A stretch of DNA of 64,000 nucleotides from Syntrophobacteraceae bacterium (lineage in GTDB: Bacteria > Desulfobacterota > Syntrophobacteria > Syntrophobacterales > Syntrophobacteraceae), in contig PXBG01000120.1 in NCBI GenBank assembly GCA_003566995.1, forward strand, positions 16,470-80,469. Direction: 5' to 3'. Every line of letters starts with the position of its first letter. Within the stretch, counting starts at the first letter, position 1. Position numbers and translations under genes: made by a program. Under the pieces are notes generated by a model, which had not been told where the DNA came from, did no database searches, and saw only the letters and a list, made by a program, of their open reading frames with translations. Below are positions 1 through 7,015 of the stretch, piece after piece.

Positions 1-3000
1 CGGGCTGGACCTCCAGCAGGCTGGGCAGCAATGGCACCCATCCCTTGGTCCACGCGCTCATCTTCATCTGGTTGCGCGCAGGCTCCATTGACAGGGACAG
101 CTTTTGAACTTCAGCGATGAGATTGCCAAGAATGCGCACTGCCAGCGCGTTTTTGGCCGTCAACGTCACGGGTCCTCCCTTCCAGGAATAGGTGAAATCC
201 CAAAGGCCGGCCCTGAATTCCCCCAGCCCGGATATGCCCATCCAGCCGCTCCCGAAGTTGACCACGGCTCGAAGCTGTGAAGGCAAAATCTCAAAATCCG
301 CCGTGAACGCTGGCAGTCCGCTCAACTGAACCCGGGCGCCAGTCAGCCGGACCGAGGCCACTGCGGGTTGACGGCGCTGAGGTGGAGTGTGCCGCACGTC
401 CAGAATCCCTGACGACGTGAACTGGGGCAGCGTCAGGCCATGCTGTCCCGTGTATGCAAAGCTACCATCGGAACGCATCACCAAACGGCCTTGAGCACGG
501 CCATCCAGAGTGATACCGGGCAGGATCGTCACCGTGGAACCGTGCCTGAAGTCGAGCTCAAACTCTGCGGACGCAAGTCCCTTTCCACGGAGGTTCACAC
601 GCACCGTTCCCGGCAGTGTGAAGAGGGGGGTGCCCGATGCATCGAAGGGATTGTTCAGTGCAAGATTAACGATGCTCAGCCCTGCTTCCCAGGATCCGCT
701 GAGGTCAAAAGTGAAGGGGGCATCCACCGTTTTGCCGTGGATGCGCACGGAACTGCCCCCTCCCAGTGCCGGCACGGTCAGGCGCGCCGGATCGATGCGC
801 AGACTCCCGCTCACAGCGTCCACTCGTATGTGCAGCGAACGTCTTCCAGCCAGCGGCTCAATGCGGAAAGAACCCAGATCGATAAATTCCACTTCTCCGA
901 TCAGTTGAGCGGCCAACGGATCAGTGCCGAGCACCAGCCGGGCAGAATTCAGGGCAAGACCGGGAGCCGCCCCCCTCCCCACGTGCATGTCGGCGCTCAT
1001 TCGCGGCAACTGCATTCTCTCTGGATCTTTGAAAGTCAACGCAAAAAGGGCCTCGTGAATCTTTCCTTTGAAAGGCCCTGCGCCGAAGGTGAGATTCCAG
1101 ATTCGAAGAACCAGTCCGCCAAAATTGCGTGCGGCGGCCAGGGGGTCGTCACTGCTGAACGCGGGATCATAGGCATAAAGCAGGGAATAAGCGTGCAACT
1201 CCGCAGAAACATTGCCCTCCAGCTGCAACACGTTCCGGAGTTCCGGCGGCAGCCTCAGGTCCTGAACAGCCGCCACCAGAGAAATTTTGGGCAGGTGTGA
1301 GTTCAAGTCCCCAGCCAGCTGCATGGCAATGGCATGGACATCGGCATCAGGATTGCTCAGGGCTGAGGCGATTCTGCCAAAATGGGTTTCTATGGGTTCT
1401 GGAGGACACTGTCGAATGGAAAACTCCAGGGCCGCCTCTCCCACCAGGTCACGCAGCCAGGAGCCGCGGGGAACACGGGCGCGGGCGCGAAGGAAACCCT
1501 CCCGGCCGGTCTCCGGTGGCACCACTTCCAGATCTGCAGACCCAACGGGAATACCCAGAATCGTCACGGGGCGATGGGGCGAACCCAGGGAGCCTCGAAA
1601 GAAAGATTCCTGGACGGAATAGAATTCGCCCCGATCCACACTGTCCAGGTCAAAGGGATAGCCCTGCATGAGAGCAACCAGGTCCCGAGGTGTGTGGACC
1701 TCCGCAAAAGCCCCGGCGGGCGGGTTGGGCGCAGGCATGTAGAAACCCATCTGTCCCAAGGTTTCCGCGGTGGTCAGGCCTTCCAGCAGTGTCTGTGCTG
1801 CATGCACCTTGTCCATCAGCCCACCCGTCAGCAATTGGTTGAACTCGGCCACAGGAGGTGGCTGCGTGAAGAGCTGAGGGAGGGCAATCCGGCCCGCACC
1901 GAGAATGCCCCCATGGGGAAAATAATCTTCCCGAAGGGAAAGGTTGCCGATGGCAGCGCCGTTGCGCAGTCCCGGCAGTGCCTTGAGCTCCTCCGCTGTG
2001 CCTCGCCAGAAGATATTTCCCAATTGATCCGAAAGCACCGCTGCCAGCAGAACTTCCAGGCGCGAGGGCAGATTTCCGGGACGATCTTCGGGTCGCAACC
2101 AGTGAATTTCACGGTGTGAGGGATGATTCAACAGGTCCGGCATGATCAAGCGCGCTTCGGCATCCACCATGCGAAAGCCCATGGGTGCGATTGCGTATTC
2201 GATGGTCGCCACCGCTTCGCTCATGGCATGAGCCAGGCCTTCCTCTGCCACCTGCAGCATTTTGGCGGGGGAATTGAGGTCGCCGCCGATGCCCGCTTCA
2301 ATGAAAGGCCGCGGATCGGGCAGCACAAGGCGCAATGCCAGCTTCATGGCATCAAAGGCGGGCAGCACACCGCCAAAGAGTTTGCCGAAAAGGGCCATGG
2401 GTGAAAAACGAAAGCTTGCCGCAAATTCTGTTTTGGTCACGTTGGCACTGACTCCAACCAGCTCGCCATCCAGCGGCAGTCCCAAGAGCTTGGGCTGGGC
2501 ACTGCCGCAGAGGAGCATTTGCGGGTTGAAATTCGTCCAGAGCCGGTCGAAGAGAGCGACCAGAAAACCACGCAGGTCTGGCCGCATGGGCTGCTGCATC
2601 AAGAGGGCGACGAGCGCCAGGGTCTGCTGGGGTTCCAGAACAGCCAGTGTGGCAAGGGGATCCCTGCCATGAGAATTGAACAAATCATCATCCATCACTT
2701 GCAGAACGCCGGCCAGAAGGTCCTGGCCCAGTTCTTCGGACAGGGCGATCGCATGGGCAGCAAAGGTGGTGATGTCAAAACCCGCCCGGAAGGTCATGCG
2801 CAATTTGCCCAGATCGAGGGGGCCCAGGGCAAAGGACAAATCCCCGCACAGGGCCGGATCGAATGCGCCCGCATCATTGTTGGCGGTGAGGAAACCGCGC
2901 AGGGTTCCCATGGGAATTCCCACGAGGTTGATGGACCCAACGATGCCGGCCGACTGGATCGTCGGGCTGAACACAACGCCCCCTGTCACCGACAGGAACG

Positions 3001-7015: not shown

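Follow-up and report, generated by a model that had tools for sequence, protein, structure and literature searches.

A giant gene and its PhoD-like partner

We analyzed a 64,000-nucleotide (nt) stretch of DNA, here called the window, from a Syntrophobacteraceae bacterium (contig PXBG01000120.1, positions 16,470 to 80,469). At its left edge lies a very large minus-strand gene, the giant, which runs on beyond the window. Directly upstream of the giant is a gene for a PhoD-like metallophosphoesterase, its partner. The features of this two-gene unit are as follows.

2 to 7015, minus strand: giant gene, codons 1-2338 of about 2,719 (open frame; homologues P0001, from locus L001, and P0002)
7012 to 7027, minus strand: junction, with GGAGG (7027-7023) followed by the ATGA overlap of the partner stop and the giant start (7015-7012) (direct reading)
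7012 to 9456, minus strand: coupled PhoD-like metallophosphoesterase partner with a DUF7800-like N-terminal domain (Pfam PF09423)
9457 to 9902, minus strand: non-coding stretch that precedes the two-gene unit and contains an 11-nt repeat in tandem

Translated in reverse complement, the 2,338 codons between the ATG at 7015-7013 and base 2 contain no stop, which confirms the uninterrupted minus-strand frame that an initial annotation of the window had described. Its absence from the accompanying list of open reading frames (ORFs) has the cause given there: the frame runs off the window and has no stop inside it. The protein begins MTPEHRRFLRHLLGKTQDFL. At a stop-codon frequency of about 0.032, as expected at 60% GC, a stop-free run of 2,338 codons has a chance probability of about 1e-33.

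Among 5.8 billion clusters, a word-indexed search detected two relatives of the giant only. P0001, encoded on a 24-kb ENA metagenome contig (locus L001), is a full-length protein of 2,719 amino acids (aa), 95% identical to the window giant. P0002 (2,638 aa, locus L002) is 29% identical, and its gene order is the same as that of the window. All 7,014 nt of the window gene align to L001 with zero indels, and the synonymous and nonsynonymous divergences (dS 0.129, dN 0.026) give a dN/dS of 0.20. Because this 95% identical copy lacks indels and has a dN/dS of 0.20, the giant frame is a real gene. Since P0001 aligns collinearly and totals 2,719 aa, about 381 codons lie left of the window edge, and the window holds the first 86% of a protein of about 2,720 residues. 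The start at ATG 7015 is backed by the called starts of P0001 and P0002 and by an N-terminal alignment, from residue ~5, with the DUF6603 proteins described below. The long plus-strand ORFs opposite the gene are best read as antisense shadows, as first suggested, with homologues and purifying selection found in the minus frame alone.

The 60% GC of the region, its many long antisense ORFs, and a 3′ end outside the window could point to a misassembly, to a pseudogene or to a frame left open by chance at high GC content. Against this stand the chance probability above, the same frame with no indels and a dN/dS of 0.20 in an independent assembly, the existence of 219 homologues, and confident AlphaFold models. 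Thus, this explanation is effectively refuted already.

Domain architecture of the giant protein

We built two AlphaFold2 models, one of aa 940-2130 from a 44-row alignment (predicted local distance difference test [pLDDT] 82.0, predicted template modeling score [pTM] 0.66) and one of aa 1-940 from a 30-row alignment (pLDDT 83.1, pTM 0.59). Together with tile hidden Markov models (HMMs) matched against 151 family proteins, they divide the window part of the giant as follows.

6326 to 7015, minus strand: N-terminal helical head, called H-type, aa 1-230, with the motif ..PL..DP..LY....GWNLEG (AlphaFold helices 3-228)
3518 to 6325, minus strand: long-stranded antiparallel beta region, aa 231-1166 (AlphaFold strands of 10-19 residues)
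3437 to 3517, minus strand: Pro/Ala-rich low-confidence linker, aa 1167-1193 (pLDDT below 50, core-model residues 228-254)
626 to 3436, minus strand: family-defining alpha/beta core, aa 1194-2130 (profile aa 940-2130, 219 representatives)
2 to 625, minus strand: start of a less conserved C-terminal beta region, aa 2131-2338, continuing outside the window (tile HMMs match 21 of 151 proteins)

The order of parts proposed initially holds up in the models. The helical head, first put at about 190 aa, is modeled as helices over aa 3-228, and the ~900 aa of beta-like sequence after it is modeled as an antiparallel sheet, all-beta from aa 233 to ~1,140. This region carries the conserved motifs LQNARFIF and AGIPLG.TGFLLTG.SGGVS. 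The protein was said to show no hemagglutinin-type or cadherin/Ig-like periodic repeats, and we likewise found no periodic array, but this region holds a single internal duplication of a ~120-aa beta-module, with aa 299-420 (nt 5756-6121) matching aa 820-941 (nt 4193-4558) at E 1e-7 to 1e-10 in the tile HMMs. The same duplication is present in P0002, P0010, and other relatives.

The Pro-rich linker survives as the low-confidence segment at aa 1167-1193 (29.5% Pro), which varies in length across the family, many profile matches being split there. The string QCPQEPCPPP, however, had been assigned to this linker and is instead part of the near-invariant family motif C..CPPP....QPHP, the start of the most conserved part of the protein. 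The mixed sequence that follows is modeled as mixed alpha/beta. Invariant columns in the family alignment include C1198..C1203PPP, QPHP 1213-1216, R1622, HP 1631-1632, W1670, FPHGG 1699-1703, and FY.PAPNPP. In P0001, the C-terminal region extends to aa 2719.

Several absences noted from the letters alone were borne out. The giant has no P-loop, HExxH or RHS-type YD repeat; a dedicated RHS test gave one chance YDxxN and zero Pfam RHS matches. No LPXTG anchor was found in the window giant. Its N terminus has no hydrophobic segment, and the sole borderline stretch for a transmembrane segment, aa 1095-1113, is predicted to be a beta-strand. Searches of Pfam (E≤0.1), NCBIfam, PADLOC, PHROGs, and PDB (by sequence and profile) gave zero matches to the giant. 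The matches proposed at the outset as evidence against novelty (AsmA/TamB, RHS or a known adhesin) were searched for with family models and whole-model Foldseek, with negative results.

Foldseek searches of both models against PDB, and of the core against BFVD, gave no usable fold match, with template modeling (TM) scores of 0.05-0.23 and root mean square deviations (rmsd) of 17-50 Å. The top PDB matches were SusC, LptD, ApoB100, lipovitellin, and a TamAB entry. At the whole-model level, LptD scored E 1e-4 to 5e-2 (TM 0.10-0.19) and the TamAB entry E 0.22 (TM 0.23); the best BFVD match to the core had E 0.03 and TM 0.10. We rejected these generic large beta-sheet proteins as a fold assignment on account of their low TM scores.

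The long antiparallel strands do resemble those of AsmA/TamB/LptD-type proteins, and the giant could on that basis be a bridge-like lipid-transfer protein, in which long amphipathic beta-sheets form a groove that spans the envelope and the phosphoesterase remodels the transported lipid. The identity of the top Foldseek matches, which are large beta-sheet or lipid-binding proteins, and the recurrence of lipid-active partners or neighbors (PLD, patatin; see below) fit this idea. However, all whole-model TM scores are at or below 0.23 with rmsd of 17-50 Å, and even the best TamAB match has E 0.22. Pfam matches to AsmA, AsmA_2, and TamB (DUF490) are absent from the window giant, 12 diverse relatives, and 18 H-type relatives. 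The giant also lacks an N-terminal membrane anchor or transmembrane segment, and as much as half of its core is modeled as helical. A lipid-transfer role is therefore improbable.

A widespread family with a new core

To define the family, the window giant, P0001, and P0002 were combined into a profile covering aa 940-2130, which was run against 1.84 billion representatives with a threshold of E≤1e-3. The search returned 219 cluster representatives, of which 164 reach E≤1e-30. Almost all of the 219 are 2,000-7,600 aa long and are matched in mid-protein. They share a core of ~1,200 aa. Tile HMMs place the peak of conservation at aa ~940-1960, where 121-147 of the 151 family proteins match; the ~230-aa head was found in 25 of the 151. 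We refer to the subgroup that shares the helical head of the window protein as H-type.

With family-wide motifs, we scanned a single genome for each GTDB species and located 71 loci, 56 of them in Verrucomicrobiota, including Limisphaerales, Opitutales, Pelagicoccus mobilis, and metagenome-assembled genomes (MAGs) labelled Akkermansia. Other loci lie in Bacteroidota isolates (Lunatimonas lonarensis, Algoriphagus antarcticus), Pyrinomonadaceae (Acidobacteriota), Kofleriaceae and other Myxococcales (Myxococcota), Desulfobacteraceae (Desulfobacterota), Planctomycetota, Longimicrobiales, and Gammaproteobacteria. Earlier scans of genome, metagenome, and viral contigs with H-type-specific motifs found no relatives.

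The giant had been called a protein of unrecognizable family. This stands insofar as no family in Pfam, NCBIfam, PADLOC, PHROGs (zero families) or PDB accounts for it by sequence or fold, but it is no orphan, as 219 representatives share its core. The relatives are annotated at source as hypothetical proteins or by the names of accessory domains, and neither DUF6603 nor DUF7800 is mentioned in the literature searched. The novelty of the core family thus lies in its having no counterpart among described families, folds or systems; its sequences are already public as hypothetical proteins. If this is correct, it adds a widespread bacterial family, unstudied in the literature searched, of 219 sequence clusters in at least seven phyla, abundant in Verrucomicrobiota and with a core without a known fold.

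One family member of Verrucomicrobia type (3,922 aa) comes from a MAG labelled "uncultured Bifidobacterium sp." (L021, CAZKMR010000094.1), probably a binning or labelling error. Many members with a signal peptide end in ...F-x-[FL]-x-L-W or ...C-x-P (C termini of P0003-P0150), and many H-type C termini consist of a helix, a Pro-rich stretch, and a short strand-like tail, for example PPLPPLPPLSMSLGTLFG. PEP-CTERM and LPXTG motifs were not found in the C termini of the relatives.

The PhoD-like partner gene and the junction

The partner gene encodes 814 aa if read from GTG 9456, or 797 aa from ATG 9405. It scores 41.5 bits against PF09423 (gathering cut-off, 27), a partial match of 57 residues to profile positions 72-128 of 343, and it matches DUF7800 (PF25077) weakly. 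In an alignment of 45 sequences, GSC151, GDQ.Y.D188, DDHE352, and GDVH564 are invariant or nearly so. We take the GSC, GDQxYxD, DDHE, and GDxH motifs to be the PhoD metal ligands. On the strength of these motifs, the partner is apparently an active, divergent PhoD-type metallophosphoesterase.

The partner thus resembles the PhoD family (PF09423; Bacillus subtilis PhoD) in scoring above the gathering threshold and in keeping these motifs. It differs in its length of ~800 aa, with extra N- and C-terminal regions, in the shortness of the 57-residue profile match, and in that no solved structure was detectable for it by sequence profile. A Tat signal such as that of B. subtilis PhoD was not found in the partner either; among 120 homologues, none has a hydrophobic N terminus, and a regular-expression search found an RR-type motif in one. 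The PhoD-like partner family comprises more than 2,700 matches.

The partner stop codon (TGA 7014-7012) overlaps the giant start codon (ATG 7015-7013), giving a 4-nt overlap of the genes that L001 and L002 share. No terminator-like site beyond chance was found between the two genes. About 100-120 nt before the PhoD-like start, the non-coding region holds a perfect tandem 11-nt direct repeat at 9552-9562 and 9569-9579 (plus strand, CCCTATTTCTC; gene strand, GAGAAATAGGG), which may be a binding site for a regulator. On the gene strand, a search upstream of the partner revealed no sigma-70-like site.

Head and partner vary together

The coupling of a giant to a phosphatase gene, seen initially in the window alone, is conserved across phyla. 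Of 12 H-type loci, 9 (the window, L001, L002, L011, L017, L019, L028, L031, and L065), which represent at least five phyla, have a PhoD-like gene directly upstream that overlaps the giant or lies at most 53 nt from it, and this gene is the sole other conserved neighbor of H-type giants. PF09423 was matched by 8 of 12 scanned partner genes. In L028 and L031, the partner is apparently fused to DUF2272 (PF10030 in 2 of the 12 scanned partners, the longest two at 1,223-1,269 aa); PhoD-DUF2272 fusions are also seen within the wider PhoD-like family.

Giants with other heads have other partners. Head B (P0004, P0007, P0008) is accompanied by a coupled partner of 995-1,028 aa that is 36% identical between loci and, in L006, has a weak PG_binding_1 match in the Pfam precomputed table. 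Head C (P0009, P0012) has an 833-aa coupled partner, and P0011 has a PLD-like one. Among the scanned non-PhoD partners, single members match PG_binding_1 (E 1.2e-5) and Peptidase_M15_3 (E 4e-4), with their carrier loci unassigned. Partners of different head types are unrelated to one another by BLASTP. Head and partner vary together across the family.

A PhoD catalytic domain fused to a family member was not found in any case. P0092 has one weak match (aa 123-214, E 1e-13), which is to the N-terminal DUF7800-like beta domain of the partner and not to its catalytic domain.

We also recorded other neighbors. Patatin domains occur in 3 of 55 neighbor ORFs across nine H-type loci (a patatin gene in L001 and in two other neighborhoods). 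L004 has an nSTAND1-WD40 protein of 1,562 aa (20264-24952, minus strand), L084 has SLFN_AlbA_2/HATPase_c_4 and PLDc_2 genes (1-2451), and L003 has a SARP-AAA-TPR regulator (1-2862).

The same head on DUF6603 proteins

The head had been regarded as unrecognizable together with the rest of the protein, and here we came to a different result. By phmmer (E 7e-8 and 2.6e-7) and by hhalign of the head against DUF6603 N termini (99.2%, E 1e-19, collinear over 5-225 versus 7-229), the head is homologous to the first ~225 aa of DUF6603-containing proteins, which are themselves uncharacterized. We sampled two PhoD-like contexts outside the giant family, in Micromonospora vulcania and Corallococcus exiguus (L079-L081). 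There, a PhoD-like/DUF7800 gene is followed, with 4-nt overlaps, by a gene for the head plus DUF6603 (~1,141-1,148 aa), one for an 883-887-aa protein with no Pfam match, and one for a protein of more than 1,770 aa that has FG-GAP repeats in the Corallococcus copy only. In one assembly of Micromonospora (L079), gene calling splits the DUF6603 gene into three fragments.

The DUF6603 proteins of Actinomycetota and Myxococcota are thus like the giant in having a homologous head, a PhoD-like/DUF7800 gene immediately upstream with a 4-nt overlap, and no signal peptide. They differ in their length of ~1,140 aa, in a DUF6603 domain that has no significant match in the giant, and in two more large coupled genes downstream that are unrelated to it. 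The DUF6603 domain (PF20248, aa ~450-1010) was not found in the giant by hhalign of a 27-sequence alignment against the H-type proteins (E 0.006, probability 6% outside the head). We also considered whether the giant is a fusion of the DUF6603-operon proteins and rejected this, as hmmsearch and hhalign results for the 883-aa protein, the >1,770-aa protein, and the DUF6603 domain were all insignificant.

Because a homologous head and an upstream PhoD-like gene occur in both contexts, the PhoD-like enzyme and the helical head are, judged by homology and gene order, a conserved unit that is grafted onto at least two unrelated bodies, the giant core and DUF6603. This would link DUF6603 and DUF7800/PhoD-like proteins into one modular system, with a swappable head and enzyme on alternative giant bodies.

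Location of the giant

The giant had been described as cytoplasmic-looking. This is doubtful because relatives carry Sec signals and extracellular-type domains and because the core has covarying Cys pairs. A crude test assigned a signal peptide to 32 of the 110 relatives with a complete N terminus, and these have a median length of 4,788 aa. Extracellular-type modules in relatives include TSP3, LamG, Ig-like, BNR, trypsin, and choice-of-anchor D, and hemopexin, CarboxypepD_reg, and beta/gamma-crystallin domains are found in individual H-type members. Ten conserved core Cys columns form five covarying pairs (r of 0.92, 0.98, 0.83, 1.00, and 0.68 across 118 proteins), behavior that would be expected of disulfides. 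The window giant keeps the pairs C1198-C1503 and C1203-C1390. The evidence on location conflicts, since the Sec signals, modules, and Cys pairs stand against H-type giants and partners that are signal-less, and it leaves the location of the H-type proteins doubtful.

The modules of the relatives, together with the beta-rich body, raise the possibility of an ordinary giant surface adhesin or matrix protein, with the PhoD-like adjacency reflecting co-regulation (for example, in surface phosphate scavenging) and no complex. Larger relatives do resemble giant repeat adhesins (Ig-like, cadherin, TSP3) in adding TSP3, LamG, Ig-like, and choice-of-anchor D modules and Sec signals. However, the window giant has no such modules or tandem domains, its ~1,200-aa core is non-repetitive, with one ~120-aa duplication and no periodic array, and neither a signal peptide nor an anchor was found. 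The 4-nt overlap and the covariation of head and partner across phyla and two bodies also favor a specific functional pairing. We consider an adhesin quite unlikely.

The signal-less proteins could instead belong to a cytoplasmic conflict or defense module, in which the giant serves as a sensor or scaffold inside the cell and, upon activation, effectors of PhoD-like, PLD-like or patatin-like type degrade nucleic acids, nucleotides or membrane lipids. Neither giant nor partner has an export signal, coupling between the genes is tight, one effector-type enzyme can stand in for another, and the window giant has lost three Cys pairs. Some loci also have defense-island-like neighbors (the nSTAND1-WD40 protein of L004, the SLFN_AlbA_2/HATPase_c_4 and PLDc_2 genes of L084, and the patatin genes of L001 and two H-type neighborhoods). 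However, PADLOC-DB 2.0 has zero families for the giant, the partner or the upstream ORF, and no NTPase or nucleic-acid-binding domain was detected. The covarying Cys pairs extend across the family, most H-type members included, and relatives have Sec signals and extracellular-type domains. The weak PG_binding_1 and Peptidase_M15_3 (E 4e-4) matches on non-PhoD partners would likewise point outside the cell. On balance, a defense module is unlikely.

A proposed carrier for envelope-active enzymes

Our preferred reading, which we put forward tentatively and as somewhat short of probable, is that the giant is a carrier or scaffold outside the cytoplasm whose head docks the partner enzyme and positions this phosphodiesterase on envelope polymers. 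The ~230-residue helical head would dock the PhoD-like enzyme, and translational coupling would keep the amounts of giant and enzyme in a fixed ratio. The long beta-sheet body and the disulfide-bearing core would act outside the cytoplasm, where the carrier would bring the phosphodiesterase to polymers of the cell envelope, whether of the producer or of its neighbors. Head and enzyme behave as an exchangeable cassette, with the same pair on a DUF6603 body in Actinomycetota and Myxococcota, and the same giant body takes other heads, paired with PLD-like or peptidoglycan-hydrolase-like genes. An envelope-polymer substrate has a precedent in B. subtilis PhoD, an endo-acting phosphodiesterase on wall teichoic acid (PMC7086022). 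By their predicted activities, the alternative partners and neighbors (PLD-like, PG_binding_1/M15-type, and patatin-like) could all act on envelope components. From these observations, we infer the physical docking, the extracytoplasmic location of the H-type subfamily, and the envelope as the target.

Several points weigh against the carrier model. No Sec or Tat signal was detected in 23 H-type giants or in 120 partner homologues. No secretion-system genes recur in nine H-type neighborhoods, and no export route can be named. The window giant has lost three of the five Cys pairs. Three H-type loci (L003, L008, and L030) lack a PhoD-like partner, and the case for head-enzyme docking consists of gene order and covariation. 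The partner is tied to PhoD by a 57-residue profile match, with no solved structure by sequence. The core could itself be an enzyme, given its invariant His, Arg, Trp, and Asp residues.

A bolder form of the carrier model would have these proteins represent an unrecognized class of enzyme-delivery machine. A giant carrier with a disulfide-braced ~1,200-residue core would exit the cell without a classical signal, bear an interchangeable head and enzyme cassette (PhoD-like, PLD or peptidoglycan hydrolase), and attack or remodel envelopes, with the cassette reused on DUF6603 carriers. We regard this as speculative and rather doubtful.

Polymorphic toxins and cargo carriers (RHS/YD, the Tc toxin TcA, large clostridial toxins) join a very large body to N-terminal modules and envelope-degrading enzymes that can be exchanged, and classical signals are missing from some of them. 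The giant has an analogous logic of body and exchangeable module. It differs in having no YD/RHS repeats or Pfam match, and Foldseek against PDB matched no Tc, RHS or large clostridial toxin structure. Its enzyme is encoded by a separate upstream gene instead of a C-terminal domain, and no immunity-like gene is conserved near the giants.

The present value of these results lies in the definition of a family and in a testable hypothesis, with a function proposed from gene order, covariation, and composition. The hypothesis extends to more than 2,700 signal-less PhoD-like enzymes and raises the question of how a signal-less 300-kDa protein reaches an oxidizing compartment. Cultured carriers are available in Algoriphagus antarcticus, Lunatimonas lonarensis, Pelagicoccus mobilis, Corallococcus exiguus, and Micromonospora vulcania.

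Remainder of the window

The next feature upstream of the two-gene unit, identified by blastn against L001, is a gene remnant.

9903 to 10709, minus strand: 268-aa ORF in which deletions have joined a patatin-like phospholipase/DUF3376 remnant to a small Zn-ribbon ORF

Relative to the L001 gene for a 966-aa patatin protein, some 2.5 kb has been lost here, and the remnant matches TIGR03607 weakly; the adjacent PhoD-like and giant genes are intact. An Rfam scan of the window gave zero matches. Local G+C falls to 0.49-0.52 at 12001-14000 (Fpg/DUF72 genes) and 42001-44000 (ORF 42730-43989), compared with a background of 0.55-0.61. The gene content of the window, with LepA, SHMT, FabF, ETF with a ferredoxin domain, radical-SAM proteins, and catalase, identifies it as bacterial chromosome.

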